Assembly (NCBI GenBank): GCA_963796285.1
Contig: CAWCKW010000001.1
Location: forward strand, 64,001 to 128,000
Source: Nitrospirota bacterium
Lineage (GTDB): Bacteria > Nitrospirota > UBA9217
DNA length: 64,000 nt
Reading direction: 5' to 3'
The position numbers and the translations under genes are program-made. Positions 7,493 through 63,988 of the stretch are shown here, one piece after another. Each line of letters opens with the position of its first letter. Position 1 is the stretch's first letter. The notes under the pieces are model-generated. The model did no database searches, was not told the DNA's origin, and was given only the letters and a program-made list of their open reading frames with translations.

Positions 7493-8256
7493 TGATGAGG
7501 GTGATGAGAAAAGAGGAGCGAGAGACGATGGACGTTGGACGAGGGACTCGAGACGTGAGGGAGGAAGGACGGGAGAACATTCAATCTTCTTGCCATCCAT
7601 CAATATCCTCTTTTTTCCCCTGTCTCCGCACCGTCGTAGCAGTGTTAATTGTTTTGGCTGTTGTTGCGCTCTCGTCTCCCGCATGGGCAGAAGGTCCGGC
7701 TCCACCCACGCCGGTCAAAGCTCTCAGCAATGAAATCCAGCAGCTGCGACAGCAGGCAGCACAGCTTGAAGAAGAAAATCAGGGGCTCAGGAACATGCTC
7801 AGGGATATGGACGACGGTGAGCTCTATCTGGTCGTGGACACGAAAAGCAACCGGCTTACGATGAGACAGGGAAACACTGTCCTGATGACGGCGATCGTGG
7901 GGTCCGGCAGCCACCAGTTCCTGAAAGAGGAGAGGGGGAGAAGCTGGTATTTTGAGAGCCCTTTGGGTTCGTTCACGGTCCTCGGCAAGGAACGGAACCC
8001 GGTCTGGATCAGGCCCGACTGGTCCTATGTGGAGGAGAACATGCCCATTCCGTCGGCGAACGACCCGGACCGGTTCGTGCGTGATGTGCTGGGCAAATAT
8101 GCCATTCTTCTGGGGAATGGGTATAAGATCCATGGCACAAAGTGGAAAAATCTTCTGGGGACCCACTTTACCCACGGGTGCGTTTCCCTTGGCGACGAGG
8201 ATCTCGAAGTAGTCCATACATCAGTGAAGAACGGCACCAGGGTATACATCTACTAA
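7492..8256 (+). CDS. L,D-transpeptidase (YkuD) family exported protein; true start uncertain, probably downstream of 7492
   Basis: Signal-like LIVLAVVALSSPAWA, coiled coil, IHGT...THGCVSL catalytic motif. Confidence 0.8.
   Translation: MMRVMRKEERETMDVGRGTRDVREEGRENIQSSCHPSISSFFPCLRTVVAVLIVLAVVALSSPAWAEGPAPPTPVKALSNEIQQLRQQAAQLEEENQGLRNMLRDMDDGELYLVVDTKSNRLTMRQGNTVLMTAIVGSGSHQFLKEERGRSWYFESPLGSFTVLGKERNPVWIRPDWSYVEENMPIPSANDPDRFVRDVLGKYAILLGNGYKIHGTKWKNLLGTHFTHGCVSLGDEDLEVVHTSVKNGTRVYIY
7512..7610. repeat. Degenerate heptamer-periodic junction element
   Basis: cgagaga-cgatgga-cgttgga-cgaggga-ctcgaga-cgtgagg with a weak pyrimidine-rich complementary arm downstream. Confidence 0.55.
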
Positions 8257-8258
8257 GA

Positions 8259-8780
8259 ATGAGGCATATCTTACAATATAAATCAGCGGTCCTGATGCTT
8301 GTTCTCTTTTTGTGTCTTGCGGGAATTTGCGGCGCCGAGCAGGGAGATGCTGAGCAGAAAAAGCTCGTTGAGCAGAAAAAACATCTGAACGCCAGGGTCG
8401 AGACGTTGAAGCAAGAGCAGGACTATCTGATTTTTCAAAAGACGATGTACGAGTCGGACTCGAAATACCTGATCATCAATTTTGCGGCAAGGAACATGCA
8501 GCTCAAGTACAAGAACCGGGTGCTCAAGGATGTTCCCTTCAAGCGTGTCCTGGGCCGTGTCAGCAGGCTTAGCCATGGAGCGTTGACGCTCACACAAAAG
8601 ATCGAGGGACCGAGGGAGAGGAATTTGCTGATCTTCGGGCAAGACCTGGTTCTGCAGGGCAAGTATGCACCGTCTACCCTGCACGAGGAGGGAATACCGC
8701 GCGTGTTCCTTTCGAGAAAAGACTTCCTATCCGTTTATTATGCCATTGAATCAGGGGCGATGGCGTTTATCCTGCTCTGA
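8259..8780 (+). CDS. Exported protein, degenerate YkuD-like (no HGC motif)
   Basis: Signal peptide, coiled coil, YLIINFAARNMQLK resembles the upstream gene; catalytic His/Cys absent. Confidence 0.55.
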   Translation: MRHILQYKSAVLMLVLFLCLAGICGAEQGDAEQKKLVEQKKHLNARVETLKQEQDYLIFQKTMYESDSKYLIINFAARNMQLKYKNRVLKDVPFKRVLGRVSRLSHGALTLTQKIEGPRERNLLIFGQDLVLQGKYAPSTLHEEGIPRVFLSRKDFLSVYYAIESGAMAFILL

Positions 8781-8949
8781 TCGACAAAATAAAACCATCA
8801 TGAAGATCATTGTGAATGTCTGAATAAGAAGTCTCGTCAATGCTCATTTGATCTCGAACACGTATCATCTCATTTTATTTATAACGATATCATGCCCGCG
8901 AGTGAAGACTAAACGCAACATTTTCATGACCATTTATGATCCCATCAAT

Positions 8950-9066
8950 TTATCTATATGTTCTGCGGTCTTTGCCAGACCTTCTGTCCTTTTCACTTCT
9001 CCGTTCAGGCCCCTTGTAATGTGGATCATTGAATTTTCTTCTATCGTGACCAGATCTTCGATTCAT
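8950..9066 (-). CDS. 38-aa Arg-rich peptide MNRRSGHDRRKFNDPHYKGPERRSEKDRRSGKDRRTYR
   Basis: ATG with GAGGT SD 5 nt upstream, TAA stop; five xRR repeats including YKGPERR; below the ORF-track cutoff. Confidence 0.65.
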   Translation of the reverse strand: MNRRSGHDRRKFNDPHYKGPERRSEKDRRSGKDRRTYR

Positions 9067-9391
9067 AGCGGACCTCACTTTAGCTTGCTACGTTCACGAT
9101 GAAAGCCGTATATCAGCAAAACGCCTATTTACGGTAGATTACTTGAGGAAACATGAATTAAAAATTATTTTCACTGACTGCTCAGCGTTTGGGGTGTAAT
9201 CCGGATATATACCAACATGCCGCTATTGTGGAACAATTCACCACTTGACTGAAGTATATCATAACACAAATATATCATACAGCATTTTTTTAAGGCTATC
9301 TGTAACGTAAGCAATAGCTGAAGTGTTTTGCCGGCTAGGGTTAAAACTTCGGCGGCGCATACGGCGACTTCGCGTAAAACGGCATTTTCTA

Positions 9392-9419
9392 TTGACTGCA
9401 ACCTTTTTCACGGTATAAT
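9392..9419 (+). promoter_or_regulatory. Sigma70 promoter of the HD-domain gene (probably leaderless)
   Basis: TTGACT-16 nt-TATAAT; ATG 9426 is the 7th nt after the -10 box; no SD. Confidence 0.65.
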
Positions 9420-9425: not shown

Positions 9426-10841
9426 ATGCGCGAACTCACCAGAGGTGAAGAATTCTACGATGGTACTGCCCTGCTCGGCGATCCGGTCCATGGGTACATC
9501 TCGTTCACCACGCCCCGCGCGACCGGCGAGAAGACCGAGAAGGACCTGATCGACACCCTCTGGATGCAGCGACTGCGCCAGATCTACCAGCTCCAGAGCG
9601 CCCGGTGGGTCTATCCATCGGCGGAGCACAGCAGGTTCCAGCATTCGCTCGGTGCTATGCATCTGGCGGGCCGGTTCGCCCGTCACCTTTACCCGTCTCT
9701 CAAGGCCGCTGCGCCGGATTGTCCTTCGGCAAACTTTATCGAAGAACTGCTTCGCGTGACCGCGCTCCTTCATGACGTAGGGCATGGCCCCTTCGGCCAT
9801 TTTTTCGACGATAACTATCTCGAACAGTTCGACTTGACCCATGAAAAACTGGGGCAGCACATTATCAAGACCGAGCTGGCGGAGATCATCAGAGACATCC
9901 GGAGAAGTCCGAACGGTGAATTCGCAAAGAAGGAGAAGCTGGACCCCGAGCAGATCGCGTTCCTGATCGGCAAGGGAGTTCAACCGGCATCGACGTCAAA
10001 AAAACAGCAGTGGCTCGTATTCCTTCAGCCCCTTCTCTCGGGTATTTACACCGTCGACAACCTCGACTATGTCATGCGCGACGCCTACATGTGCGGGGTG
10101 GCCATCGGAGCGGTGGACATCGACCGGCTGATGTATTACACGTTCTTCACGGACAAGGGCCTCACACTCCACAAGTCCGGACTTACCGCATTGAACATGT
10201 TTCTGAATGCCCGGTTGTATATGTACACGAACGTCTACTACCATCGCACCACGCGGGCGATCGACGAGCACCTCAAGGAGCTTTTCAAGGACACCATGGG
10301 GGTGTTGTTTCCATTCAATCCGGTTGAGAACCTCAAGGCATACCTGGAACTGACCGACTGGTCCCTGCTCGAGGCCGTGCGGAAATGGGACGGCAACGGG
10401 GAAGGGTCCACAGCCGCGCTCGGACGGGAATGGGCGGCCATCCTGTCGCGTGAAGTAAAATGGAAAATGGCCTATGACGTTACGCTTTCGATGAAAACCT
10501 TCGAAAAAGGGAAGACCATCATCGACGCCAGGGAACTGGTGAGCCGCATCAAGAGGCACCTCTCGCCGAAGCTTAAAGACCTGCAGTTCAGGGTGGATAT
10601 GGCGAGCCAGGACCCGAGGCCGGTCAACCCGCTTATGATGGGCGAGCGGCAGATCCACGTGTTCAATCCCTCGACGCGTAAAGTGGAGAAAGAGCCGCTC
10701 AAGGATTTCTTTGACTATATCCCTGCCCGCGTTGTACAGTGCCGGGTCTTTACCCTGAACCACGACCACGATGAAGAGCTTGCCGAGATCGTTGAGAAGG
10801 TCCTCGGCATCCAGGAAGAGAGCATCAAAACCAACGTCTGA
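9426..10841 (+). CDS. HD-domain phosphohydrolase, dNTP triphosphohydrolase (SAMHD1-like) family
   Basis: DPVHGYI, QRLRQIYQL, EHSRFQHSLG, LLHDVGHGPFGH, DNLDYVMRD, MYTNVYYH. Confidence 0.88.
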   Translation: MRELTRGEEFYDGTALLGDPVHGYISFTTPRATGEKTEKDLIDTLWMQRLRQIYQLQSARWVYPSAEHSRFQHSLGAMHLAGRFARHLYPSLKAAAPDCPSANFIEELLRVTALLHDVGHGPFGHFFDDNYLEQFDLTHEKLGQHIIKTELAEIIRDIRRSPNGEFAKKEKLDPEQIAFLIGKGVQPASTSKKQQWLVFLQPLLSGIYTVDNLDYVMRDAYMCGVAIGAVDIDRLMYYTFFTDKGLTLHKSGLTALNMFLNARLYMYTNVYYHRTTRAIDEHLKELFKDTMGVLFPFNPVENLKAYLELTDWSLLEAVRKWDGNGEGSTAALGREWAAILSREVKWKMAYDVTLSMKTFEKGKTIIDARELVSRIKRHLSPKLKDLQFRVDMASQDPRPVNPLMMGERQIHVFNPSTRKVEKEPLKDFFDYIPARVVQCRVFTLNHDHDEELAEIVEKVLGIQEESIKTNV

Positions 10842-12796: not shown

Positions 12797-14224
12797 TCAA
12801 AAATGCATTGCATTCTGTATGATCGCGATCATCGGCCCCGGATACACCCCGAGCCAGATGAGCAGGATGACGAGCGCTGCGAGGACCATGCTGCCGGAAG
12901 GCGAAAGCACGGCTATAGTCTTGTCTTCTTGCTCCGAGTGAGAGAACATTGCGACGATGATCCGGAGATAGTAAAAGAGCCCGATAACGCTGTTCCCAAT
13001 CATCACAATAACAACCAGCCAGAGGGCGGATCCCACGCCTGCCGCGATGACGTAAAATTTCCCCACGAATCCGGCTGTCAGGGGAATGCCTGCGAGCGAG
13101 AACAGCATGAAGGTAAAGACACCCGCAAGCCATGGTCTTCTCCAGGCAAGGCCCTGATAATCGTCCATGCGATCGGCATCGCGGTCTTGTTCAGAGATCA
13201 CGGTGACCACACCAAATGCGCCGAGGGTGGTGATGAAATACGCCGTCAGATAAAAGGCGGCTGCGGTCATTGCCAGGGGGCCGCTTGCCAGAACGGTCAC
13301 GAGCAGATATCCCAGATGAGAGATCGACGAGTACGCGAGGATGCGCTTCACGTTTGTCTGGAACAGGGCGAGGAGATTGCCGGCGAACATCGACGCGATG
13401 GCGATGATGGTGAATATCGCGAATAGCGGCGTGTGGGAATGGATATCGATCAGGGTGAAGTAACGAAGCACGAGTGCGAACACCGCGCCTTTGGACACCG
13501 TGGCTATGAAGGCCGTCACGGGAGCCGGCGCTCCTTCGTACACATCGGGCGTCCACATGTGGAAGGGAACCACGGCGAGCTTGAACCCAAGTCCGACGAG
13601 GATCATCACGATACCGGCAAGGAACATCAGACGATGAGCTCCCGGACCTGCTGCGAAAGCAGCGATACCGCTGAACGCCATGCTGCCGCTTTCGGCATAC
13701 ACCAGCGCCATGCCGAAGAGGATGAATGCAGATGAGACCGCGGCCAGGATGAGGTACTTGATGCCGGCCTCGACACCACGGTCGCTGTGCCGGAGATAGG
13801 CTGCGAGGGCATAGAGCGAGACGCTTAAGAGTTCAATGCCGAGGAAGAACGAGGCAAAGTGAGCTGCTGCAGCGAGCACGGAGCAGCCGAGCGTGGCGAT
13901 GATCAGCAGCAGATAGAATTCCTCTCTATGTCCTTGTTGCATCTCAAGATAGGAATAAGAAAGGCCGGCCACGGCAAAGCTTGCTGCCACGATAAGACCG
14001 ATATAAAAAAGGGCGGAGTGGTCGACCACGAGAAGAGGAGTGACCAAGCGCGGGAGCGTGCAGGAAACGAGGGGAAGGCTTGCTGCCGACAGGAAAAGTC
14101 CCGAGAGTGTCAGGATGACAGTGAGCTTGTGGCTGCGGTTAAATGCGATGGTCAGCATGACCACAACTGCGGTGGCTGCAAGGATGATGAAGGGTGAAAG
14201 AGTCTGCAGGTAAGCGATGCTCAT
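12797..14224 (-). CDS. nuoN: NADH-quinone oxidoreductase subunit N
   Basis: EAGIKYL, FKLAVVPFHMWTPDVYEGAP, KRILAYSSISH. Confidence 0.95.
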   Translation of the reverse strand: MSIAYLQTLSPFIILAATAVVVMLTIAFNRSHKLTVILTLSGLFLSAASLPLVSCTLPRLVTPLLVVDHSALFYIGLIVAASFAVAGLSYSYLEMQQGHREEFYLLLIIATLGCSVLAAAAHFASFFLGIELLSVSLYALAAYLRHSDRGVEAGIKYLILAAVSSAFILFGMALVYAESGSMAFSGIAAFAAGPGAHRLMFLAGIVMILVGLGFKLAVVPFHMWTPDVYEGAPAPVTAFIATVSKGAVFALVLRYFTLIDIHSHTPLFAIFTIIAIASMFAGNLLALFQTNVKRILAYSSISHLGYLLVTVLASGPLAMTAAAFYLTAYFITTLGAFGVVTVISEQDRDADRMDDYQGLAWRRPWLAGVFTFMLFSLAGIPLTAGFVGKFYVIAAGVGSALWLVVIVMIGNSVIGLFYYLRIIVAMFSHSEQEDKTIAVLSPSGSMVLAALVILLIWLGVYPGPMIAIIQNAMHF

Positions 14225-15862
14225 TTTCCGCCTCCCTGATTGGAGGCAGGAAACGTCAAAATATTCACCACAGAGTTCACAGAGGTTTTTGAATATCTAA
14301 TAGATTTTATCTCGGCGTTCTCTGTAGTTATTTTATGAAGATTCATTGCGTTGTTATGATCTGGAATCTGAATCTCTCCGTGTTCTCTGTGGTTAACGAA
14401 TTGAATGGCATTTAGGAGCGGTTCGACTGTTTTCAGAACAGGCCGCGGGTAAAGGCCAAGCCAGAGTATCACGAGGACCATTACCGCCATCGAGCCTGTT
14501 TCGCGTGAAGAAAGGTCAATAAGCTTCAGACCATCTTGCCTCTTGCCATGGAACACGCGCTGGACGATCCAGAGCGAGTAGATCGCGGCCAGAACAAGCC
14601 CGCTGGCGGCGAACATGGTGATCACGGGGTGGGTCCGGTATGAACCGATCAGCACCATGAACTCGGCAACGAAATTGCCGAAACCCGGCAGGCCGAGTGA
14701 GGCAAGGGCAAAGACAAGACCGAAGCCGCCGAGTCGCGGCGCCGCTGACCAGAACCCGCCCATGCCTCCCAGCTCGCGGGTATGGACGCGCTCCTGGATC
14801 ATCCCGACGATGATGAACAGCGCGCCCGTGCTGATGCCGTGGGCCACCATCTGCATGGTCGCGCCTGAGAGGGCGATCTGATTCCCGGCGAAGATGCCGA
14901 TGAGCACAAAGCCCATGTGGCTCACGCTGGTATACGCCACGAGACGCTTCAAATCGGTTTGGCCAAACGCGAGCAGAGCGCCGTAGATGATACCGATGAC
15001 GCCCAGCACCAGCATTATCGGTCCAATGGTCGCAACAGCATCGGGGAAGAGCGGCAGCACGAAGCGCAGAAGTCCATAGGCCCCGGTCTTGAGCAGGAGC
15101 CCGGCAAGGACAACGCTTCCTGCTGTCGGTGCCTCGGTGTGGGCATCAGGCAGCCAGGGATGGAACGGGACGACCGGCAGCTTTACAATGAAACGCAATG
15201 ACAAACCCGAGCATGATCCAGAACGCTGCCTGGGAAGACAAGGCGATATGGCGCAGCAGCGAGTAATCGAAGGTATAAACGCCCGTGTCCTGGCCATGTA
15301 TGAAATAGAGTGCAAGGATCGAAAGGAGCATCAGCAGGCCGCCTGCCTGGGTGAAGATGAAGAACTTGAGCGATGCATAGACGCGGTTCTCGTGCCCCCA
15401 GATGTTGATCAGGAAGTACATCGGGATGAGCATCAACTCCCAGAAGAAGTAGAACAGGAACAGGTCCACGGCCAGAAACACGCCGAGGATCCCCGCGAGG
15501 ATCCAGAGCAGGTTCATGTGGAAGAACCCAACGCGCTCTCGGATCTCGGTCCAGGAGCAGATGACGGAGATGATACCGAGAAACAGGGTAAGCGCCACGA
15601 GTACGAGGCTCAGGCCGTCCATTGCGAGGTGCAGGCTGATGCCGAGCTGAGGGATCCACGGTTTGTTTATTTCGGTCAGCCAGGCGCTTTGAGTGAGATC
15701 GAGTCGGATGGCGGCGCTCGACCAGAATGATAACAGCAGGACGGCGTCGAGTGCGAGCGCGGCGAGGGACAGCCACCGGGACAGGGTGTTGTTCCTGTTC
15801 CCGAAGAACCATGCCAGCAGTCCGCCGATCAGCGGTATGATGATGAGCCAGATTAGGATCAT
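14221..15862 (-). CDS. nuoM: NADH-quinone oxidoreductase subunit M (frameshift near 15185; repeat-derived C-terminal extension)
   Basis: FFWELMLIPMYF, KLPVVPFHPWLPDAHTEAP, DLKRLVAYTSVSHMG split over two ORFs. Confidence 0.92.
14266..14395. repeat. 9-mer-periodic inverted-repeat element inside the nuoM 3' end
   Basis: accacagag-ttcacagag pairs with ctccgtgtt-ctctgtggt; an extra arm copy lies at about 14311-14329. Confidence 0.75.
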
Positions 15863-16236
15863 GTAGTAGCCCCTCCCTTGATGGGAGGGGTTGGGGAGGG
15901 TGATTTCTGAGAGCAGGTTCTTAGAATCATTTCCAAAACCCCTTCGATTTTTGTAAGTACTTCATGATTCCAGAATCTTAAAACAGAGAACCCTTGTGAC
16001 ATTAGCCAGATATCCCGATGTGAATCAACTGCTTCAGAATGCTGACCACCATCAACTTCAACGACTACAGCTTTTTCATAACATACAAAATCCACAATGT
16101 AGTTGCCGATTGGTTCTTGTCTCCTGAACTTCAATCCTTCAACTTGCTTAAAACGCAGGTGCTTCCATAAGAATCTTTCTGCGTCAGTAGCGTTTTTCCG
16201 TAGGTTTTTGGCCTTCTTGGTTAGATCAAGCGTCAA
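15859..16236 (-). CDS. DUF559 (Vsr-like) endonuclease-domain protein
   Basis: LRKNATDAERFLW, KFRRQEPIGNYIVDF, VEVDGGQH, VLRFWN; TGA overlaps the nuoM ATG. Confidence 0.88.
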   Translation of the reverse strand: MTLDLTKKAKNLRKNATDAERFLWKHLRFKQVEGLKFRRQEPIGNYIVDFVCYEKAVVVEVDGGQHSEAVDSHRDIWLMSQGFSVLRFWNHEVLTKIEGVLEMILRTCSQKSPSPTPPIKGGATT

Positions 16237-16279
16237 AATGCCTTCCCTCCCCAACCCCTCCCACTAGGGGAGGGGCTAC
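15866..16279 (-). mobile_element. Inverted-repeat-bounded DUF559 cassette between nuoL and nuoM
   Basis: About 35-bp terminal IRs (gtagcccctcccttgatgggaggggttggggaggg vs ccctccccaacccctcccactaggggaggggctac) bracket an AT-rich gene. Confidence 0.8.
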
Positions 16280-18175: not shown

Positions 18176-18184
18176 AGTCAGGTT

Positions 18185-18275
18185 GTAGCCTCCCCCTTTA
18201 ATGGGGGAGGTTGGTGGGGGTAAGTTCCGACTTTTCACCCTCCCCTCAGTCCCCTCCCATCAAGGGAGGGGATGC
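18185..18275. repeat. Empty DUF559-class inverted-repeat element at nuoK/nuoL
   Basis: gtagcctccccctttaatgggggaggttggtggggg...caccctcccctcagtcccctcccatcaagggagggg; same arms as 15866/16279, with no gene inside. Confidence 0.8.
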
Positions 18276-19093: not shown

Positions 19094-19103
19094 AGTGAAG
19101 TCA

Positions 19104-19133
19104 TTCTTTACGACCTTCGCGCTTGGCGAGAAA
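19104..19133. repeat. Solo arm of the 9-mer class element at nuoI/nuoJ
   Basis: ttctttacgaccttcgcgcttggcgagaaa resembles the right arms at 47328, 49501 and 50458. Confidence 0.5.
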
Positions 19134-19664: not shown

Positions 19665-20122
19665 TTTGACAGGAGAACAGGATAAAATCTGATAATGCTA
19701 CTTCAATCGCCTGAGCTTGCGCTTGATTTCGACTTTATCTTCACCAAAGTTAATGAGAAGTCCGATAGGTTTCCCTGTCGCAACGAGATAATTCACTAAT
19801 TGAACTTCGTGTACCTTGACAAGCTGCTTTATGGCCTTCAGTTCGAGAATAACCGTATCGTTTACAATAAGGTCTGCAATAAAATCGCCGACGAGTTCGC
19901 CGTCATAATATACTTGTATGGTTTTTGAGTCTCGACCTTTAACGCTGCTTTTCGTAATTCAATAACCAAGCATTTCTCATAAACGCTTTCAAGAAATCCT
20001 GCACCCATTTTATTATAAACGCGATATGCACAGGCAATGATTTTTTCAGTCAGTTCTTTGTATTCCAATTGGCCTCCGACAGATTCTCGCTCTTATCCTG
20101 TCAATCCTGTTATCCTGTCAAA
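19665..20122 (-). mobile_element. Inverted-repeat-bounded GxxExxY cassette between nuoH and nuoI
   Basis: tttgacaggagaacaggat (19665-19683) vs atcctgttatcctgtcaaa (20104-20122), 18/19 complementary, 9-nt periodic. Confidence 0.8.
19698..20068 (-). CDS. GxxExxY (PD-(D/E)XK superfamily) protein, one frameshift near 19920
   Basis: GGAGG SD with TTG start; [10 protein letters not shown], then in the shifted frame [34 protein letters not shown]. Confidence 0.85.
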
Positions 20123-21095: not shown

Positions 21096-23609
21096 CTATT
21101 CTGAGTGGATCAATTTTGCACGTTCAACGATAGCCGGTGATTGTGCGCTCAATTCTTCTGATCCGAAGATGTTATAAACAGGTATCTCCGCCTGTTTACC
21201 CTTCGTATGATTTAGAGCTTCCGTCGTGAGATTGAAATACACAGGCTGAACTGTTGTTCCCGCCCCAATCAGGCTTTCCCCTATATCACCGCCTTTGAGG
21301 GGCCCGCCCACGTCCTGCTGGAACTTGTTCAAGGCCTGGACGGAATTCCAGCCCGGCGACCAGTAGCGGGTGATCAGCGACGGGGGAGGCTGGTCCTGAT
21401 ATCCCTCCATGGAAAAAGCAAGGGGAGAATCAGCGTCATTCGGCGGCTTTGGTTCATGCAAGCGGATGTTGGCGATCATGGCTGTGCGCCCGCTGTAGCG
21501 GTGCGGCTGGCGAGGGATCTTCTGCCCTTGTATCCTCCAATCAGCGGATGGCGCACTACTCACGGCAGGTCCGAATACCGGCATTGCAGCTGACATATCT
21601 TTCGCGATGTCATCGAAAGATTGCCATGTTGTCGATTTTCCGATCGTGGCCAGTATATCACGGATCCACTTCCAGCTTTCCTGAATGTCATGGTTCGGTT
21701 TGAATACCTGATAGAACCGCTGTGCCCGGCCTTCATTGTTCATCAAAGTTCCCTGGGCTTCCGCAAAAGTAGCAGCGGGCAGGGCGACATCCGCTTTTGA
21801 TGATGTCGGATTGACCAGGGAGTCAAGCACGATGATGTTCTTTGCATGATCCAATACTTCATCGACGATCTTTGCATCAGCCCTGCGAAAAAGGTCATTT
21901 TCAAGGATGATCATCGTATCGGCCTGACCGTCCCGGATGGATTTGAATGCCTCATCCAGGTTCTTACCCTTCATGAGAGCGAGTCCCATGGTATTACATT
22001 CCAGGACCGTGTAACAGAGGCCGGCCTGCTTCCCAATCGAGCAAAGGGCCCATGCAATATTGGCGGCTGCCTCAATGATCGCCTGGCTCATGCATCCGGT
22101 GCCGCTCACGATAACTGGACGCTTTGCATTCTTGAGCGCCGCTGCTATTTCCTTTGCTAGCGCTCTGACATCGGGTGATTGGTCTGGAACCGCGGGAACA
22201 TGCTGATCCAATTCATTTGCCACCGCAATACCGAGCCCTGCGATGTCGGCGGCCGAAGCCTGGTAGGTTTTTGTTGCAACATCATCCAACTTCGACTTTG
22301 AACCGGACGCTATGTAGATCGGTGTTTCTGAATTCTGTCCCGCGTTCCTGACCGCATTATCGTCCCAGCCGGGTATCTTCATAGCTGCCGCTGTCTCGCG
22401 TTGCTTGTTCTGAGCTGACTGACGGATCGAGAGCGCGAGCATCGGGGCTGTGTTGGTCACATCTTCACCGAGAACAAAAACCGCATCCGCAGACTCGATC
22501 TCATGCAGGGAAGGCGTGCGCGCAGGACCTTTTTGAAGAATGTCTACGATAGACCCCATGAGCGTGTGTTCCTGGCCGGACAGGCCTGAGCAGAAGTTGT
22601 CAGGACCGACAAGGGTGCGAAGGGCAAAGTTCGATTCAAGCGACGCACGGGGCGATCCGATGCCGATCATGACTTTGTTTTGGGACAGCATCTTCTTGAT
22701 CCTGCTGATCGCTGCGGTCTTGTCCGCAGGTGCCTGGCCTTCCTGTGCAGTTGCTTTAAGCAGCGCTTTTCTGATTCTGCGCCCGCTGTTCACGAATTCA
22801 TATCCAAACCTGCCGCGGTCGCAGAGGAAATAACCGTTGATCTCATAATTGTAGCGGTTCAATATTCTGCGGAGGGTGCCGTACCGTTCACCGGGAATCG
22901 TGTTGCAGCCGATGCCGCAATGAACGCAGATCGACGGCGCGGTCTGAAGGTCCCATTTTCGAGTAAAGTGCTGTTTGAGCGTTTTATCCGTAAAAACCCC
23001 GGTGGGGCAGACTTCGACCAGGTTCCCGCTGAACACGTTTTCGAGCGCGCCCTCTTCATGCCTGCCGAAATAGACGTTATCATGGGACGCGAATACAGAA
23101 AAGTCGCGGCCACCCGCATAATTACGATAGAACCTGACACAGCGATAGCATTGGATGCACCGGTTCATTTCATGATTGATGAAAGGGCCGAGGTCCTGGT
23201 TCCGTTGAGTGCGTTTTTTGAACCGCGTCCGCCGGTAAGTATGGCCGGTCATGACCGTCATGTCCTGAAGGTGACATTCGCCGCCCTCGTCGCAGACCGG
23301 ACAATCATGGGGATGGTTCAACATGAGCCATTCGATCACGCTCGACCTGAAGGCCCGAGCATCGGCATCGTCAATAGATAATCGCATTCCCTCGGCAACC
23401 GGTGTCATGCAGGACATGGTGATCCTGCCGCGCGTATCCTTGTCATCCTTGAACAGTTTGACAGCGCATTGACGGCATGCGCCCACAGAGTGCAGGGCAG
23501 GGTGCCAGCAGAAGTAGGGGAGATCGAACCCCAGCGAGAGGCAGGCCTGGAGGAGGTTCTGGCCTTCTTTGACTTGATGGGGTTTATTGTCTATATAGAT
23601 CGTAAACAT
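21096..23609 (-). CDS. nuoG: NADH-quinone oxidoreductase subunit G (with N7-type CVHCGIGC motif)
   Basis: FCWHPALHSVGACRQC, NHPHDCPVCDEGGECHLQD, CIQCYRC. Confidence 0.95.
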   Translation of the reverse strand: MFTIYIDNKPHQVKEGQNLLQACLSLGFDLPYFCWHPALHSVGACRQCAVKLFKDDKDTRGRITMSCMTPVAEGMRLSIDDADARAFRSSVIEWLMLNHPHDCPVCDEGGECHLQDMTVMTGHTYRRTRFKKRTQRNQDLGPFINHEMNRCIQCYRCVRFYRNYAGGRDFSVFASHDNVYFGRHEEGALENVFSGNLVEVCPTGVFTDKTLKQHFTRKWDLQTAPSICVHCGIGCNTIPGERYGTLRRILNRYNYEINGYFLCDRGRFGYEFVNSGRRIRKALLKATAQEGQAPADKTAAISRIKKMLSQNKVMIGIGSPRASLESNFALRTLVGPDNFCSGLSGQEHTLMGSIVDILQKGPARTPSLHEIESADAVFVLGEDVTNTAPMLALSIRQSAQNKQRETAAAMKIPGWDDNAVRNAGQNSETPIYIASGSKSKLDDVATKTYQASAADIAGLGIAVANELDQHVPAVPDQSPDVRALAKEIAAALKNAKRPVIVSGTGCMSQAIIEAAANIAWALCSIGKQAGLCYTVLECNTMGLALMKGKNLDEAFKSIRDGQADTMIILENDLFRRADAKIVDEVLDHAKNIIVLDSLVNPTSSKADVALPAATFAEAQGTLMNNEGRAQRFYQVFKPNHDIQESWKWIRDILATIGKSTTWQSFDDIAKDMSAAMPVFGPAVSSAPSADWRIQGQKIPRQPHRYSGRTAMIANIRLHEPKPPNDADSPLAFSMEGYQDQPPPSLITRYWSPGWNSVQALNKFQQDVGGPLKGGDIGESLIGAGTTVQPVYFNLTTEALNHTKGKQAEIPVYNIFGSEELSAQSPAIVERAKLIHSE

Positions 23610-23631
23610 ATTTTCTCTGATTGCTGATCAT

Positions 23632-24903: not shown

Positions 24904-24917
24904 GGTACTTTATTTGA

Positions 24918-25382
24918 CTATGGGTAATTCTCCAGGATCTTTTCCATCATCTCCGGGGTCACGGGCCCGTACAAGTCCTCACCAACCATCATGGCCGGGG
25001 CGCGGTCGCAGGCGCCGAGGCAGGAGATGGGGAGGAGTGTGAAACGCTCGTCCTCTGTCGTTTCTCCGAATCGAATGCCGTGGGTCGTCTTCAGAAGTTG
25101 CAACAGCGGATTGTAGCCCATGACCCAGCAACTGATGCTGTCACATATCAGGATCACGTGCCTGCCCACTGGCTTCCGAAAAATAAAACTGTAAAATGTC
25201 GCAACTGCATCCAACTCATCGGGCGTCATCTCGAGCATTCGCGCAACTTCCTTGAGGCTCTCATCCGATACCCAGCCTTGGTGGCGCTGTACGATGTTCA
25301 GCGCTTCAATTGAAGCTGACTGCTTCGTCACGCAGTGTGCCAGTTCAACGTTGATTTTCTGTATTTCGATTTCGCTCAGCAT
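24918..25382 (-). CDS. nuoE: NADH-quinone oxidoreductase subunit E
   Basis: VATFY, CDSISC...CLGAC 2Fe-2S ligands. Confidence 0.95.
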   Translation of the reverse strand: MLSEIEIQKINVELAHCVTKQSASIEALNIVQRHQGWVSDESLKEVARMLEMTPDELDAVATFYSFIFRKPVGRHVILICDSISCWVMGYNPLLQLLKTTHGIRFGETTEDERFTLLPISCLGACDRAPAMMVGEDLYGPVTPEMMEKILENYP

Positions 25383-25388
25383 TTCAAT

Positions 25389-25781
25389 TTACCTCCTCTC
25401 CCCGAGGGGAGAGGATAGAGGTGAGGGGGTGTGTTGTCTTTGTTCTATTGCTCTCAAAATTGCTTCGTATATTCCTTCTTTGTTTAGCAATATATCCCTA
25501 TTGTTGAATCTGATAATATGTATGCCCCGCGCTGACAGCGCCTTTTCTCTCTCTGCGTCATGCGTCGCGCCCTTATTTTCATAATGCTGGCCGCCGTCTG
25601 CTTCAATGGCAATTTGCAATTCAGGTGCATAGAAGTCCAGGATGTATTTGTCGATAGAAAACTGTCGTCTGAATTTAATACGAGCCAATCGTCGATCGCG
25701 TAAGAGCGACCAAAGATTTCTTTCCGCGTCAGTTTGATTTCTGCGAAGTTCTCTGCTTCTCGGTATATTGGGTCGTTTCAA
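25389..25781 (-). CDS. DUF559 endonuclease-domain protein
   Basis: LRRNQTDAERNLW, KFRRQFSIDKYILDF, IEADGGQH, IIRFNN. Confidence 0.88.
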   Translation of the reverse strand: MKRPNIPRSRELRRNQTDAERNLWSLLRDRRLARIKFRRQFSIDKYILDFYAPELQIAIEADGGQHYENKGATHDAEREKALSARGIHIIRFNNRDILLNKEGIYEAILRAIEQRQHTPSPLSSPLGERR

Positions 25782-25824
25782 CTTCCCCCCTCACCCCAGC
25801 CCTCTCCCCACAGGGAGAGGGAGA
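25392..25824 (-). mobile_element. Second inverted-repeat-bounded DUF559 cassette (nuoCD/nuoE)
   Basis: cctctccccgaggggagaggatagaggtgaggggg vs cccccctcaccccagccctctccccacagggagaggg. Confidence 0.8.
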
Positions 25825-25831
25825 ATTCTAA

Positions 25832-27581: not shown

Positions 27582-27591
27582 AGGGTGAATG

Positions 27592-27834
27592 CAAATGTCA
27601 AATTACAAAGCTCAGAGTTTAAAGGAATGTCAAAACGTCAATGTTTAATTTGATTATTTTGAGTCTGTATTTAATATCCTTTTTCGTCATGCCGGACTTG
27701 ATCCGGCATCCAGCGGTTTTATGAAAAGACTGGATTCCTGCCGCCGCAGGAATGACGAGCTTGAGAGAAACAGCAATGAAAATGCAAACTATATTTTGTA
27801 GTTTGATTTGTACTTTAGATTTTGAAATCTGAGC
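27592..27834. repeat. Heptamer-periodic inverted-repeat element at nuoB/nuoCD
   Basis: caaatgtcaaattacaaagctcag...tttgatttgtactttagattttgaaatctgag. Confidence 0.65.
27685..27757. repeat. REP-like palindromic element nested in the previous element
   Basis: cgtcatgccggacttgatccggcatccag...ctggattcctgccgccgcaggaatgacg: terminal IR with two internal hairpins. Confidence 0.75.
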
Positions 27835-27842
27835 TTATTCCG

Positions 27843-28457
27843 CTACACTTCATCGGGCGATCTCAGGACCGTGGCCTTTTGCCGCTCTTCCCGTTTCAGG
27901 TCCCGCATGCACGGTTTCTCCGGCCGCACGATGCCCTGCGGCCCGGCGATCCAGCTCAAGGGCCTGCGTTCTTTGCCGACCTGCTCACGCAGCATCAGCA
28001 GACCTTCCATAAAGGCCTCGGGCCGGGGAGGACAACCGGGCACGTACACGTCAACGGGCATGAACTTGTCCACGCCCTGGACCACGCTGTAGATGTCGTA
28101 CATGCCGCCGGAGTTGGCGCAGGAACCCATGGAGATGACCCATCGCGGCGCCATCATCTGTTCATAGAGCCGCTTGATGATCGGCGCCACCTTGATGAAC
28201 ACCGTACCGGCAACGATCATCATGTCCGCCTCTCGCGGCGTTCCGCGGATCACCTCCGCGCCGAAGCGCGCAATATCGTACTTGCTCGTCAGACTCGTGG
28301 CCATTTCAACATAGCAGCAGGAGAGGCCGAAGTTGAACGGCCAGATGGAGTTCTTCCTCCCCCAGGCGAGCATGTCCTGCATCGTCGTGAGGATCACGCT
28401 TTGGCGCATCGCGTCTTCCGCGGAACCGTGGTCAGGTCTGGTTAAAGAATAGTTCAT
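27843..28457 (-). CDS. nuoB: NADH-quinone oxidoreductase subunit B
   Basis: [30 protein letters not shown]. Confidence 0.96.
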
Positions 28458-28472
28458 GAAGCCTTTCGGAAA

Positions 28473-28582
28473 GTTCAAATGTCAAAATTCAAAGTTTAAA
28501 TCAATCCTTAACCAAAAAAATTCAAATTTCACGCTTGTTGTTTTTTTTATTTCGAACGTTGATCTTTGAACTTTGAAATTGA
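28473..28582. repeat. Heptamer-periodic inverted-repeat element at nuoA/nuoB
   Basis: ttcaaatgtcaaaattcaaagttt vs ttcgaacgttgatctttgaactttgaaatt; overlaps the nuoA 3' end. Confidence 0.65.
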
Positions 28583-29103: not shown

Positions 29104-29130
29104 AAAAAAAGCGGGGCATCTCTGCCCCGC
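29104..29130 (-). terminator. Intrinsic terminator of the octaheme gene
   Basis: GCGGGGCA-gaga-TGCCCCGC plus T7 on the minus strand. Confidence 0.75.
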
Positions 29131-34316: not shown

Positions 34317-34398
34317 CTCGCAGAGGCGCTGAGACACTGAGAAATTCATAGTTAACAATAAGAAAGATTTTCTCTGCGTCTCTCGCGTCTCGGCGGTT
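34317..34398. repeat. Empty 9-mer-periodic inverted-repeat element at crcB/DUF190
   Basis: ctcgcagaggcgctgagacactgaga vs tctctgcgtctctcgcgtctcggcggtt. Confidence 0.7.
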
Positions 34399-35275: not shown

Positions 35276-37159
<1,884 letters not shown>

Positions 37160-37177
37160 TTTTTTTTTGAGGTTCTC

Positions 37178-42493: not shown

Positions 42494-42636
42494 CTTGAAC
42501 CGGACAATCCTGAACCAAAAGGCGTCGCTCGCAGAGCACGCAGAGCACGCGGAGTAGAATCAAAACAATTAAGCCTGGGTTTTTATCCAGAATTTTTTTT
42601 AATCTTTTCTCTGCGATCACTGCGCCTCTGCGAGAG
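42494..42636. repeat. Composite junction element (27-bp arm plus 9-mer inverted repeat)
   Basis: cttgaaccggacaatcctgaaccaaaa, then ctcgcagag-cacgcagag-cacgcggag vs ctctgcgat-cactgcgc-ctctgcgag. Confidence 0.78.
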
Positions 42637-42670
42637 ATCAACTGACGTAAATATCCAACGGAGGATACCG

Positions 42671-43847: not shown

Positions 43848-43934
43848 CCCCCCTCACCTCGGTCCTCTCCCCAAGGGGGAGAGGAAGAAAATAATTCCCT
43901 CGCCCCAACGGGGAGAGGGCTAGGGTGAGGGGGA
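43848..43934. repeat. Empty DUF559-class inverted-repeat element
   Basis: cccccctcacctcggtcctctccccaagggggagagg...ccctcgccccaacggggagagggctagggtgaggggg; same class as 25392/25785. Confidence 0.85.
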
Positions 43935-45782: not shown

Positions 45783-45970
45783 GGCCGCGGATTTACCCCG
45801 TTAGAAATAGAAATTTCTACCGGGGTGAGCACGGATAGACACGGATAAAGACCAACGGCAATATTGCAACGCAGAACAGTTGATAGGTTGGGTAAAACGG
45901 GTCACATTGCACAACATCTTTCGACACGATAAGTTGGGCTCCATGAAGTATCTATTCACCCCAACCTACA
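45783..45970. repeat. Stack of three repeat classes
   Basis: ccgcggatt..cacggatagacacggat 9-mer arm interrupted by hairpin accccgttagaaat..atttctaccggggt; then taggttgggt...accccaacctac pair. Confidence 0.65.
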
Positions 45971-49405: not shown

Positions 49406-49421
49406 CGGCTCAAACAAAAAG

Positions 49422-49560
49422 AATTTTACCGCGAAGGCGCCAAGAGTGCGAAGGAAGGCAAAAGATCCTTGCTGGTTTAAGACAGTGTATTAACGATTTT
49501 CTTCGCGTCCTTTGCGCCTTCGCGGTAAAATTATTTTGGTTCCGGCCTGACCCGGTTAGG
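49422..49560. repeat. 9-mer inverted-repeat element plus 27-bp arm before etfB
   Basis: Perfect 19-bp IR aattttaccgcgaaggcgc/gcgccttcgcggtaaaatt, then ttttggttccggcctgacccggttagg. Confidence 0.85.
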
Positions 49561-49568
49561 AGGATGCG

Positions 49569-50383: not shown

Positions 50384-50519
50384 TTTTACCGCGAAGGCGC
50401 GAAGAAATCGAATGCAGGTAGAAGATTTTCGGGATTGAAATTAGACATTGAAAGATTTTCTTCGCGACCGTTGCGCCTTCGCGGTTAAAAGATGTTTGCT
50501 CCGGTTCATCCGGATCAGG
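50384..50519. repeat. 9-mer inverted-repeat element plus 27-bp arm before etfA
   Basis: taccgcgaaggcgcgaagaa vs ttcttcgcgaccgttgcgccttcgcggtt; gtttgctccggttcatccggatcagg. Confidence 0.82.
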
Positions 50520-50529
50520 AGGATTTAAT

Positions 50530-57444: not shown

Positions 57445-57540
57445 GTGCGGAATGCGGATTTTGGAATGCAGAACATAACATCAACCCCCCTGGTCGTACA
57501 ACCGGAGGTAGCGTGAGACAAACGATTTCCTTCCGCATTT
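57445..57540. repeat. Heptamer-periodic element after nrdJ with internal hairpin
   Basis: gtgcgga-atgcgga-ttttgga-atgcaga vs ttccttccgcatt. Confidence 0.6.
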
Positions 57541-57578
57541 TATCCGATAAAGGGCAGTGCGAGGTACGTTAACAACTG

Positions 57579-62175: not shown

Positions 62176-62183
62176 AGATACAT

Positions 62184-62282
62184 TTTTACCACGGAGGCAC
62201 GGAGACACGGAGAAGAGCAGTTACGCGATCTGTGTCTATTGTCTAACGCCTTTCTCTGTGACTCCGTGTCTCTGTGGTGAAA
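62184..62282. repeat. Empty 8/9-mer-periodic inverted-repeat element
   Basis: ttttaccacggaggcacggagacacggagaa vs ttctctgtgactccgtgtctctgtggtgaaa. Confidence 0.85.
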
Positions 62283-62304
62283 TTTCAGGTTTTTGGAGGA
62301 ATTC

Positions 62305-63882
62305 ATGAAGGTTCTGATCAGCGACAACCTCTCCCCGATCGGGGTGGAAATATTGAAAAAGGCCGGGCTTGAGGTGGACGCCCGGAGTAAAACATCGGCC
62401 GAGGAGATCGAGAAGATCATCGGTGACTACGACGCGCTCATCATCCGTTCGGCCACCAAGGTCACGGCGGCGCTGCTCGAGAAGGCGACGAAGCTCAAGG
62501 TGGTCGGTCGTGCGGGCAGCGGTCTGGACAACGTGGAGATCCCGGCAGCCACCAAGAAGGGTGTGGTCGTCATGAACACGCCGGGCGGCAACACGATCAC
62601 CACGGCGGAACACACCATCGGCATGATCTTCGCCTGTGCCCGAATGATCCCCCAGGCCTATTCCTCGCTCAAGGCGGGGAAGTGGGAAAAGAAAAAGTTC
62701 GAAGGCGTCGAGCTGTATGCCAAGACCCTGGGCATCATCGGCATGGGCGCGATCGGCGGTGTGGTCGCGAACCGTGCGATTGGGCTCGGCATGAAGGTGC
62801 TGGCCTTCGATCCTTTTATCTCTCCGGAAAAGGCGAAAAGTCTGGGGATCGAGCTGGCGGACCTGCCGACGATCTATAAAAATTCTGATTTTATAACCCT
62901 TCACACGCCGAAGACCAGGGAAACAGCGAACCTGATCAATAAGGACACGATCCGCCAAATGAAGGATGGCGTTCGCATCATCAACTGCGCCAGGGGCGGG
63001 ATCGTGAACGAACAGGACCTCTACGAGGCGCTCAAGAGCGGCAAGGTCGCCGGTGCGGCGTTTGACGTGTTCGAAAAAGAGCCGCCGGAGAACCATCCGC
63101 TCCTCACACTCGACAATTTTATCGCCACGCCTCACCTCGGCGCATCGACACGTGAGGCCCAGGAGAACGTGGCCGTCGCCGTTGCGGAGCAGATCGTGGA
63201 CTACCTCATCGCCGGCACGGTGCGGAACGCCGTGAACGTACCGTCGGTGCCCGCAGACCAGCTCCCGATGCTCTCCCCCTACATCAATCTTGCGGAGCGC
63301 ATGGGACTCTTCCAAGCGCAGCTTTGTGAGGGAGGCCTCACGCAGGTGACGGTGGAGTATAGCGGAGAGGTGTCCAATCTCAAGCAGGAGCCGATCACGC
63401 TTGCAGCGCTCAAAGGCCTGCTGACGCCGATCCTCAATGAGAACGTCAACTATGTGAATGCACCGCTCATCGCAAAGGACCGCGGCATCGAGATCAAGGT
63501 GTCCAAATCGGTCGATACCACCGAGTACACGAGTCTTATCACGATCCGGGTCAAGGCCGGCGGCAAGGACCTTTCCGTTGCCGGGACGTTGAACAGCAAA
63601 AAAGAACCGCGCATCATTCAGGTGGACAACTTCCCCATGGAGACCGTGCCCGAGGGCGACATGCTCGTGCTCATGAACAACGACAAACCGGGTGTGATCG
63701 GCGGCATAGGCATGCTGCTCGGCCAGAACGGGATCAATATCGCGCGCATGCAGTTCGGCCGCGAGAAGCAGGGCGGGATGGCGATGTCGGTCGTAAGCAT
63801 CGACAGTGCCGTGTCCGACGACCTCATGGCAAAGATCAAACAGATGCCGAACGTGCTGTCGGTGAAGCAGGTTAAAATATAG
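62305..63882 (+). CDS. serA: D-3-phosphoglycerate dehydrogenase (long form with ACT domain)
   Basis: RAGSGLDNV, GMGAIG, NCARGG, PHLGAST, NNDKPGVIG. Confidence 0.96.
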   Translation: MKVLISDNLSPIGVEILKKAGLEVDARSKTSAEEIEKIIGDYDALIIRSATKVTAALLEKATKLKVVGRAGSGLDNVEIPAATKKGVVVMNTPGGNTITTAEHTIGMIFACARMIPQAYSSLKAGKWEKKKFEGVELYAKTLGIIGMGAIGGVVANRAIGLGMKVLAFDPFISPEKAKSLGIELADLPTIYKNSDFITLHTPKTRETANLINKDTIRQMKDGVRIINCARGGIVNEQDLYEALKSGKVAGAAFDVFEKEPPENHPLLTLDNFIATPHLGASTREAQENVAVAVAEQIVDYLIAGTVRNAVNVPSVPADQLPMLSPYINLAERMGLFQAQLCEGGLTQVTVEYSGEVSNLKQEPITLAALKGLLTPILNENVNYVNAPLIAKDRGIEIKVSKSVDTTEYTSLITIRVKAGGKDLSVAGTLNSKKEPRIIQVDNFPMETVPEGDMLVLMNNDKPGVIGGIGMLLGQNGINIARMQFGREKQGGMAMSVVSIDSAVSDDLMAKIKQMPNVLSVKQVKI

Positions 63883-63902
63883 CATTCCGCTTTGATGGAA
63901 TG

Positions 63903-63988
63903 AATTGAAGATTGGAAGTTGGAAAGTGATGGCAGTTAGCTCTTCTGAGCAATTTGCAATTTAAAATTTCCAATTTACAATTTCCAAT
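63903..63988. repeat. Empty heptamer-periodic inverted-repeat element after serA
   Basis: aattgaa-gattgga-agttgga vs caatttg-caattta-aaatttc-caattta-caatttc; followed by an AAGGAG SD. Confidence 0.75.

Follow-up and report, generated by a model that had tools for sequence, protein, structure and literature searches.

We analyzed a stretch of 64,000 nucleotides (the window) from the genome of a Nitrospirota bacterium of the UBA9217 lineage (GenBank assembly GCA_963796285.1, contig CAWCKW010000001.1, positions 64,001 to 128,000; G000:C1:64001-128000 in our numbering). A Pfam scan of 81 open reading frames (ORFs) of the window identified a nuo operon of 14 genes on the minus strand, running from nuoA (28547-28972) to nuoN (12797-14224), and a fad/etf cluster together with housekeeping genes on the plus strand. 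Inverted-repeat (IR) elements lie at gene boundaries on both strands, and three of those in the nuo operon enclose a small co-oriented gene, two of the DUF559 family and one frameshifted gene of the GxxExxY family. These elements are real, non-random, structured into classes and variable between close genomes. We assign them to at least three families of small palindromic cassettes, and in each family one cargo gene goes with its own type of flanking arm. To the whole of this explanation, in which selfish, operon-compatible cassettes resembling the intervening sequences (IVS) of 23S rRNA are accompanied by ORF-less derivatives, we assign a probability of roughly 0.55.

The original prediction for this stretch had listed three loaded copies, and all three encode a nuclease-fold protein with profile matches above the cut-offs. 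The cassette between nuoL and nuoM (15866..16279, minus strand) carries a DUF559 gene (15859-16254; PF04480, 139.4 bits, E=5e-41, cut-off 20.6) between G/C-tract hairpin arms (5' arm 16245-16279, 3' arm 15866-15900) that are 91% complementary; when the sense strand was folded and compared with dinucleotide shuffles, a test applied to 20 junction sites of the window, this site gave a z of -5.8. Orthologous cassettes occupy the same junction in two relatives (L003 and L006). A second DUF559 gene (25389-25781; PF04480, 114.5 bits, E=3e-33, same cut-off) lies between nuoCD and nuoE in a cassette (25395..25820, minus strand; z -5.2) with arms of the same G/C-tract hairpin class (25395-25436 and 25779-25820). 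The third cassette, between nuoH and nuoI (19665..20122, minus strand), has ACAGGAT-periodic arms (19665-19683 and 20104-20122, 95% complementary) around a GxxExxY gene of the PD-(D/E)XK type that a frameshift splits into 19862-20068 and 19698-19796. The two parts match PF13366 with 82.7 and 53.8 bits and the N-terminal part matches TIGR04256 with 57.8 bits; the score against NCBIfam NF007294, the E. coli-type equivalog, stayed under the 218-bit cut-off and the gene is thus not that equivalog.

Elsewhere the genome brings the number of such genes to four for DUF559 and three for GxxExxY, and adds about six genes for a four-helix-bundle protein (PF05635, S23p) that matches TIGR02436 and the PDB entry 2gsc. 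DUF559 matches PDB entry 3hrl, and the PDB search found no structure for GxxExxY. Every intact small cargo gene of this genome is IR-flanked, with spans of 414-508 nt, and the IR score reaches at least 31 at 10 of 13 loci; the three low values belong to broken four-helix-bundle copies. A sample of 26 genomes from the taxonomic family gave 84 loci, 79 of them usable, and an IR was scored when it exceeded the 99th percentile of non-partner flanks. This threshold was passed by 24 of 30 GxxExxY, 17 of 21 DUF559 and 18 of 28 four-helix-bundle loci, with median spans of 439-487.5 nt (487.5 nt for the four-helix bundle). The arms differ by cargo. DUF559 arms combine a G/C hairpin with a G-tract (median GC 0.69) and are not periodic, GxxExxY arms are built of C-R-C-N-R-A-N units at a spacing of 8-10 nt in 16 of 17 periodic arms, and four-helix-bundle arms show a 7-nt spacing in 20 of 22. 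The three arm classes hence correspond to three cargo families, one of which, the four-helix bundle, is loaded only elsewhere in the genome. The original prediction had named three arm classes and proposed to look for a pairing of class with cargo; both stand, the pairing being tight across the 26 related genomes, while the four-helix-bundle (S23p) cargo and the link to the 23S rRNA IVS had been missed.

The association reaches beyond the family. Judged by eye from the printed arms, the same hairpin and G-tract arms surround DUF559 in about 70 of 75 loci from many phyla (Thermodesulfobacteriota, Nitrospirota, Chloroflexota, Alpha-, Beta- and Gammaproteobacteria and others), the five loci devoid of them being L124, L132, L150, L154 and the E. 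coli copy L167; the formal count of 29 of 75 understates the pattern, because arms that are alike across loci inflate the null (99th percentile 31.6). For 24 GxxExxY elements, the more identical the proteins, the more identical the arms (Mantel r 0.47, permutation p 0.0005). A gene is hence passed on together with its arms as one unit, and the two co-diverge.

ORF-less elements share the arms of the loaded ones and are far commoner (about 70-170 nt in length, loaded ones about 410-500 nt). A genome-wide search for arrays of at least three C-R-C-N-R-A-N units, which was independent of any pairing, returned 105 arrays on one strand and 115 on the other. Within 560 nt of each other, such arrays were paired 72 times in the order X..rcX (an array followed by a reverse-complementary one) and never as rcX..X, a polarity that is strict on either strand, and the enclosed loops mostly measure 20-120 nt. 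At the nuo junctions of relatives, the inner 5' arm of empty elements still reads 'TATGAT' and the inner 3' arm 'TAATCATA', the places of the cargo start and stop in loaded copies. Loop homology of 81-100% was found in 17 pairs among 63 empties (two of which consist of array calls that overlap at a single locus), which is consistent with ORF-less derivatives also spreading as units. The proposed relation of autonomous to non-autonomous forms is thereby supported by shared arm classes, by the retained start and stop context of the cargo and by shared loops. In one relative (L051), a complete empty element lies in the 5' flank of a loaded one. In several CGCAAAG-type elements (e.g. G000:C12:1071202, 164390 and 737267), a conserved module TCGCGCAATGGCCAAGAAGAGGGCCACACTGAG substitutes one outer unit and gives an orientation to otherwise symmetric elements.

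Short repeats of this kind recall MITEs (miniature transposable elements with inverted repeats). Indeed, the 72 motif-array pairs, taken as one class, are bounded by terminal inverted repeats (TIRs), shorter than about 300 nt, non-coding and multi-copy. MITEs derive from transposase-bearing insertion sequence (IS) elements and make target duplications. The elements could accordingly be MITEs or REP-like repeats that a conventional transposase, either a DDE IS or an IS200/RAYT-type Y1 enzyme, mobilizes in trans, with the small genes as captured passengers; the loop homology would fit such spreading and a Y1 transposase is present in the genome. The likeness extends to the Correia elements of Neisseria (CREE/NEMIS) and to ERIC, RUP and Chunjie, which are also short, TIR-bounded, intergenic, multi-copy, co-transcribed and strain-variable, and a review describes Chunjie of Geobacter as a MITE that sits within an operon and leaves it unbroken (PMC10969869). 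A transposase-coding autonomous relative was not found for our elements, in contrast: their coding partners are DUF559, GxxExxY and four-helix-bundle genes, their arms are tandem-periodic or G/C-tract hairpins and no duplication is evident. As predicted, the window holds no transposase family among its 81 scanned ORFs. REP/REPIN repeats with RAYT were considered and rejected, as the hairpins that flank the one clear Y1 IS200-type TnpA of the genome (C13:80663-81028) are of an unrelated type (CAGCAGCTCTGCTGCTG); a weaker Y1 match at a contig end was left out of this hairpin check. Passengers would also not be expected to behave as these genes do, with three unrelated cargos keeping their own arm classes through 26 genomes, DUF559 arms kept across phyla and cargo and arms co-diverging. 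We therefore consider mobilization by a conventional transposase improbable.

The whole genome contains 228 IRs as compared to 77 mirror repeats, which served as the control (merged repeats were counted), and 75 compared to 8 when at least 20 matches were required. A gapped-alignment census gave 96 IRs and 8 mirror repeats, with arms kept at least 3 nt apart because alignments across their own centre score double, and a self-BLAST of contigs C1-C3 alone gave 33 IR matches and 1 mirror match. The arms are mostly intergenic (148 of 228 IRs versus 10 of 77 controls, by crude gene calls that class 76% of the genome as coding), so the arms are not scattered at random, as the original prediction required. 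Periodic arms, defined as a 5-mer occurring at least three times at a spacing of 6-10 nt, were present in 36 of 228 IRs and in 0 of 77 controls; they were detected by k-mer chains, since simple autocorrelation missed the alternation of 8 and 9 nt. Elements with periodic arms occupy 56 co-directional, 7 convergent and 4 divergent junctions on a base-pair background of 0.68/0.14/0.19, an excess of co-directional sites of about 2.8 sd, or about 1.8 sd on a count background. Most of the 59 IR-flanked cargos (46) run in the direction of the upstream ORF, 8 run against it and 5 have no assigned upstream ORF; 33 of the 59 lie within co-directional gene pairs. The elements sit in transcribed spacers, and their cargo is co-oriented with the upstream gene.

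We compared the junctions of nuo operons from 12 relatives, whose nuoH is 74-97% identical. Between nuoF and nuoG, where the window has 22 nt and no element, 4 of 10 genomes carry a GxxExxY-loaded element (PF13366, E <= 1e-37). The nuoH/nuoI junction is loaded in 1 of 12 genomes, namely in the window, and holds ORF-less sequence of 106-340 nt in nine and only 12-31 nt in two. DUF559 is found between nuoCD and nuoE in 2 of 10 genomes; 7 of the 10 have 9-107 nt without DUF559, among them the closest relative, L001, with 107 nt. At this junction another relative (G003, L004:3274-4302) has a gene for a GGDEF diguanylate cyclase of 342 amino acids where the window has DUF559. DUF559 lies between nuoL and nuoM in 4 of 9 genomes, in one of them as a broken gene, and the nuoJ/nuoK junction, 9 nt in the window, is about 200 nt longer in L001 (212 versus 12 nt as gaps bounded by tblastn).

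The same variability was seen among strains. DNA contigs from peat and sediment metagenomes with at least 90% likeness to the window contain alternative alleles at four junctions. In contigs of the sets X1 and X6, the arms between nuoH and nuoI are the same but enclose 22 or 8 nt in place of positions 19694-20097, the GxxExxY gene, whereas record 5 of X1 spans this gene with 0 gaps. The nuoK/nuoL element (18179-18275/7) is reduced to 13-15 nt in contigs of X1, X4 and X6, which come from three studies. An X1 contig has 32 nt in place of 14239-14399 between nuoM and nuoN, and an X1 contig skips 27587-27842 between nuoB and nuoCD. All three states, absent, empty and loaded, are thus found side by side in nature, with gain, emptying and loss between relatives and strains. 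Junction states are not identical across relatives, which is what the original prediction of mobile elements had led one to expect. Some DNA contigs join different elements (e.g. 16275->27968 and 25808->15863), most simply as assembly paths through repeated arms. Contigs from one RNA run (X20) contain a joint 19657->20155 that has unknown letters and may come from a relative, and we draw no conclusion on transcription or processing from it.

Besides the loaded cassettes, the window contains a number of ORF-less elements and solo arms; an IR search returned 95 IR pairs. The original prediction had counted elements at about 21 gene boundaries. IRs were found at the places named, and 13 of the 20 sites tested fold with z <= -3.5, i.e. 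the nuoL/nuoM, nuoK/nuoL, nuoCD/nuoE, nuoB/nuoCD, DUF190/crcB, fadB/thiolase, thiolase/acyl-CoA dehydrogenase (ACAD), ACAD/next gene, CCG/etfB, etfB/etfA and serC/serA junctions and the sites after aspS and after serA. Two are marginal with z of about -2 (nuoM/nuoN and nuoH/nuoI), and five fold no better than shuffles: nuoI/nuoJ and PIN/CCG (both solo arms only), nuoA/nuoB and MerR/tRNA (both AT-rich and weak) and the site after nrdJ. The number of solid elements in the window is therefore about 15, not about 21.

In the nuo operon, all on the minus strand, the nuoM/nuoN element (14264..14396; z -2.1) is ORF-less with CACAGAG-type periodic arms (14264-14284 and 14376-14396), and the nuoM frame of the window continues through it. 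The nuoK/nuoL element (18179..18275; z -3.6) is an ORF-less G/C-tract element in the order hairpin, G-tract, spacer, C-tract, hairpin, as in loaded copies. Between nuoI and nuoJ (19100..19132; z -0.4) lies a solo 5'-type arm, TCTCGCCAAG CGCGAAGG TCGTAAAG, that has no partner. The nuoB/nuoCD element (27586..27842; z -5.3) is a composite without an ORF, in which AT-rich periodic outer arms enclose an inner palindrome pair, CATGCCGGACTTGATCCGGCATC / ATTCCTGCCGCCGCAGGAAT, and it differs among the variant contigs C1, C8 and C9. Its inner palindromes (27690-27770), of the type CGTCATGCCGGA..TCCGGCATCC / GGATTCCTGC..GCAGGAATGACG, also flank a small GIY-YIG nuclease gene elsewhere in the genome (G000:C10:72935-73348). 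Small GIY-YIG genes were rejected as a fourth cargo family on a par with the others, having IR arms above the null at only 5 of 30 loci of the family sample; they may form a fourth, looser cargo class. The nuoA/nuoB element (28470..28574) is weak, AT-rich and 74% complementary; its z of -0.8 is not significant, and it is kept in L001. The remaining nuo junctions (E/F, F/G, G/H and J/K) measure only 9-22 nt. The claim of elements at 8 of 12 nuo junctions thus holds only when the solo arm at nuoI/nuoJ and the weak nuoA/nuoB element are counted. That no conserved core is disrupted is mostly correct; the nuoM frame running through the nuoM/nuoN element is an exception, and in L001 (G004, 9950-10251) a G/C-tract element lies within the variable C-terminal region of nuoG and not between genes.

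Also on the minus strand, the DUF190/crcB junction (34319..34395; z -5.3) holds an ORF-less element with CGCAGAG/CGAGAC-type arms of 8-9-nt periodicity, at which the alignment with variant contig C9 breaks. The elements that follow are on the plus strand. The one after aspS (37052..37166; z -5.6) has 7-nt periodic (CAGGAGN) arms (37052-37092 and 37126-37166) followed by a T run, and its arm type is like that of four-helix-bundle cassettes (locus L076, arms CAGAAGTCAGGAGCCAGGAGCC). ORF-less elements lie between fadB and the thiolase gene (42525..42637, CGCAGAG-type arms; z -3.9) and between the thiolase and ACAD genes (43849..43933; z -7.2), the latter a G/C-tract element of inverse order (C-tract, hairpin, spacer, hairpin, G-tract; arms 43849-43884 and 43898-43933). 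After the ACAD gene (45795..45850), a hairpin accompanies a solo CACGGAT-type arm, and the z of -3.5 is owed to this separate hairpin. The CCG-FeS/etfB junction (49413..49541; z -5.7) has an ORF-less element with CGCGAAG-type arms of 44 nt (49413-49456 and 49498-49541, 84% complementary), and the same arm type, 94% complementary, returns in the ORF-less etfB/etfA element (50384..50489; z -4.0). A weak ATTGCGG-type element follows nrdJ (57445..57552; z -0.7, not significant), an ORF-less element with CACGGAG-type arms separates the serC-like gene from serA (62184..62282; z -7.8), and 7-nt periodic (ATTGGAA) arms follow serA (63903..63990; z -4.7). A tRNA gene (31676-31749, Rfam 55 bits) lies directly 3' of an AT-rich periodic stretch (31605-31675); the Rfam search of the window yielded a tRNA only and no family for any element.

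Downstream of the CCG-FeS/etfB element, a CCGG..CCGG-TTAGGAGG module precedes the ATG. It belongs to a 21-nt motif, TTCCGGCTTGTCCGGGTTAGG, made up of a small CCGG..CCGG hairpin with TTAGG at its end. The genome has 70 copies at up to 4 mismatches, two of them in the window (49545-49565 and 50500-50520). A start codon often follows at a distance of 5-25 nt, and 16 of the 70 copies stand just 3' of a periodic element; the motif may act as a common 5'-UTR or ribosome-binding element.

Part of the irregularities of the window stems from its assembly. nuoM, nuoCD, pcm and aspS are each broken by single-base frame errors, and single-base differences from environmental contigs (at 15190, 18026, 24908, 25806, 27716 and others) coincide with these split genes. 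Since the window has one base more at 15190 than the environmental contigs, at least part of the frame errors appear to be assembly indel errors. The frameshift of the GxxExxY gene is present in an X1 environmental contig as well, with 0 gaps. Window positions 21555-39375 have 95-98% identical variants in contigs C8 and C9, whose alignments break at junction elements, and contig C4 is a variant of C1:1-7381 at the same level of identity. The variant contigs differ from C1 chiefly at junction elements, and these short contigs suggest strain heterogeneity in the bin (contamination 5.04%).

Such assembly errors, the five sites that fold like shuffles and the T run after the aspS element raise the question whether the elements are chance hairpins, terminators or artefacts. 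For the 13 strong sites this is refuted by the IR excess over mirror controls, by the environmental contigs and by the fold z-scores; the same elements recur in independent assemblies and in relatives. Intrinsic terminators consist of a G+C-rich stem and a U run, whereas the periodic elements start with TTT and end with AAA, and no U run follows the stem except for the T run after the aspS element. As an account of the elements in general this is very improbable.

We wondered what kind of known element the cassettes resemble most. The IVS of the Coxiella 23S rRNA is described as measuring 428-444 nt; it has a terminal stem of 28 bp, within which RNase III cuts, tandem GACAGAT heptamers in the region of the 5' arm and an S23p ORF (PMC4990558). 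Terminal IRs, a long stem, an ORF of about 120 codons and a total of 400-500 nt are equally found in the cassettes described here, and the four-helix-bundle cassettes of this genome and its relatives combine the S23p ORF with heptamer arms. In contrast to the IVS, the three loaded copies of the window carry DUF559 or GxxExxY with other arm classes, the elements lie between protein genes and not in an rRNA helix (the 20 four-helix-bundle loci gave no Rfam match), and excision by RNase III has been demonstrated for rRNA elements only. The origin and mobility of rRNA IVS have been open since about 1990, and that of the Coxiella IVS is called unclear (PMC4990558). RNase III is also reported to cut Correia transcripts at their TIRs (PMC2649163, PMC10969869).

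A second likeness is to free-standing homing endonuclease genes (HEGs), in that a small nuclease-fold gene lies between conserved genes and is present or absent between close genomes. Examples are the seg and mob genes of phage T4, I-Bth0305I, which has a Vsr fold (EDxHD), and I-Ssp6803I, a PD-(D/E)XK enzyme. Homing enzymes are thus known for the folds of both nuclease cargos, the Vsr-like DUF559 and the PD-(D/E)XK protein GxxExxY. To our knowledge, known free-standing HEGs are neither wrapped in long inverted repeats nor accompanied by abundant ORF-less derivatives; a further difference is that one cargo family of the present elements is not a nuclease. A DUF559 protein of Caulobacter is reported to damage DNA in vivo (PMC12907096).

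We propose that the cassettes are selfish elements that behave like homing endonucleases. The small nuclease would target the arms, either their sequence or the hairpin or cruciform into which they fold, and its action would lead to the cassette being copied into unoccupied or empty sites; ORF-less copies might then be both decay products and passengers that depend on factors supplied in trans. Several details suggest how an operon could bear such inserts. In the nuoL/nuoM cassette, the 5' G-tract immediately precedes the probable start of the cargo, translation of the 3' arm gives an SPxPxP tail and the cargo stop overlaps the nuoM start (ATGA). At nuoK/nuoL, the last hairpin of the element provides a GGAGG 13 nt before the nuoL ATG. 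Compatibility of the element with the operon would explain why insertion is tolerated: a terminator is lacking, Shine-Dalgarno (SD)-like G-tracts or a following SD module may serve the downstream gene, and in one case stop and start overlap. The long stem, itself a fold prediction, would probably be cut in the mRNA by RNase III as in rRNA IVS and Correia elements. Both cargo-driven mobility and RNase III processing of the mRNA are inferred.

Several points weigh against selfish, mobile cassettes. The nuoL/nuoM DUF559 proteins of the window, L003 and L006 share amino acid identities of 0.63-0.69 at a dN/dS of 0.17-0.19, and their synonymous divergence (pS 0.61-0.67) is similar to that of nuoK and nuoI. 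These cassettes look like positional orthologues. The purifying selection on the cargo speaks for a functional gene and thereby for the preferred reading. The synonymous divergence, however, is shared with the flanking nuo genes, so the cassettes are old residents and their movement is rare, a pattern that a domesticated function would also fit. The arms of these cassettes are identical at 34-35 of 35 positions despite saturated synonymous sites, which points to a sequence recognised by some factor, not necessarily the cargo protein. Within this genome, arms match their partners no better than non-partner arms of the same class (0.768 versus 0.764, the partner being the best match in 4% of 52), so that no partner-specific covariation supports the stem. 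Taken together with the near-invariant DUF559 arms, this argues that the arm sequence itself, and not pairing alone, is constrained or homogenised. Furthermore, the enrichment at co-directional junctions, proposed originally and found for 56 of 67 periodic-arm elements, is modest and relies on crude gene calls, the GxxExxY copy of the window is a broken gene and one cargo, the four-helix bundle, is no nuclease. In the alternative alleles, short spacers of unrelated sequence stand in place of a clean empty site, and no clean target-site duplication is seen; the statement of the original prediction that none is evident is qualified by a single anecdotal case, a possible TAA/TTAA duplication at nuoJ/nuoK between the window and L001. 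Cleavage, homing and RNA processing by these cassettes are, as said, inferred.

The long residence at one junction and the strong conservation of the arms keep a domesticated role in play. The elements could be operon modules whose stems and proteins are kept by the host to set segmental mRNA stability, processing and translational coupling, with gains and losses as regulatory turnover. Their placement in transcribed spacers, the co-orientation with the upstream gene, the purifying selection on the cargo and arms that are better conserved than synonymous sites would all be expected, and the same holds for the SD-like G-tracts, the overlap with nuoM and the SD-proximal module TTCCGGCTTGTCCGGGTTAGG after elements. 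REP, ERIC and Correia repeats are described as precedents for effects on mRNA (PMC10969869). A host function would, however, have to accommodate that absent, empty and loaded states at one junction alternate between close relatives and strains without a visible rule, that the same arms and cargo turn up in unrelated contexts in many phyla, that the cargo comes from DNA-nuclease families and that copies are pseudogenised (GxxExxY in the window, DUF559 in L001 and broken four-helix-bundle genes). We regard domestication as an unlikely account of the elements as a whole.

The lack of partner-specific covariation could also mean that the arms are arrays of binding sites for a DNA- or RNA-binding protein of the host and that their pairing is incidental. 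Arms made of three to five tandem units, in which the core is conserved and the spacer positions are free, agree with this notion, as does the strict polarity of 72 to 0. Paired tandem octa- and heptanucleotide repeats of the same kind (GTTGCTYN x4, MTYCTGA x5) occur in Geobacter metallireducens and were read as 'global regulator binding sites' (PMC2700814). They resemble the ORF-less periodic elements in having 4-5 tandem units of 7-8 nt on opposite strands, at variable distance and in intergenic position; the sections of that report on these repeats treat them as regulator sites without a link to cargo, loaded forms or IVS. Binding sites would not explain why the arms enclose specific cargo genes and co-diverge with them, nor why divergent, promoter-containing regions are avoided (4 of 67 elements versus 0.19 of the background). 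The DUF559 class lacks periodicity altogether, and presence varies between strains. We give this explanation little credence.

Selfish cassettes with ORF-less derivatives hence remain our preferred reading, and there is a substantial chance that they constitute a distinct class of mobile elements. A bolder and tentative generalization, clearly less probable than the reading for the window, is that of a pan-bacterial, formerly unrecognised class without transposase, in which a protein of about 120 amino acids (DUF559, GxxExxY or S23p) would recognise its own arms and cause the cassette to be copied to intercistronic spacers and to loops of rRNA. Through RNA-level excision and ribosome-binding sites, the arms would make the insert harmless, and the 23S rRNA IVS as well as the Geobacter-like 'periodic palindromes' would be special cases. 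In the open literature we found no account that treats DUF559, GxxExxY or S23p genes and their arms as one element; subscription journals and the TIGRFAMs/NCBIfam descriptions were outside this search.

Of the small bacterial genes without a known role, those for DUF559, GxxExxY and four-helix-bundle proteins belong to the commonest. That gene and arms form a heritable unit with loaded, empty and absent alleles at shared junctions makes both their role and the origin of IVS accessible to direct experiment. In genome annotation, tails encoded by an arm (e.g. SPxPxP) and spurious ORFs across periodic arms should be recognised as such, and the cassettes are a possible source of compact nucleases specific for sequence or structure. 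With regard to operon biology, long respiratory operons tolerate several such inserts, which may set their processing and ribosome-binding sites.

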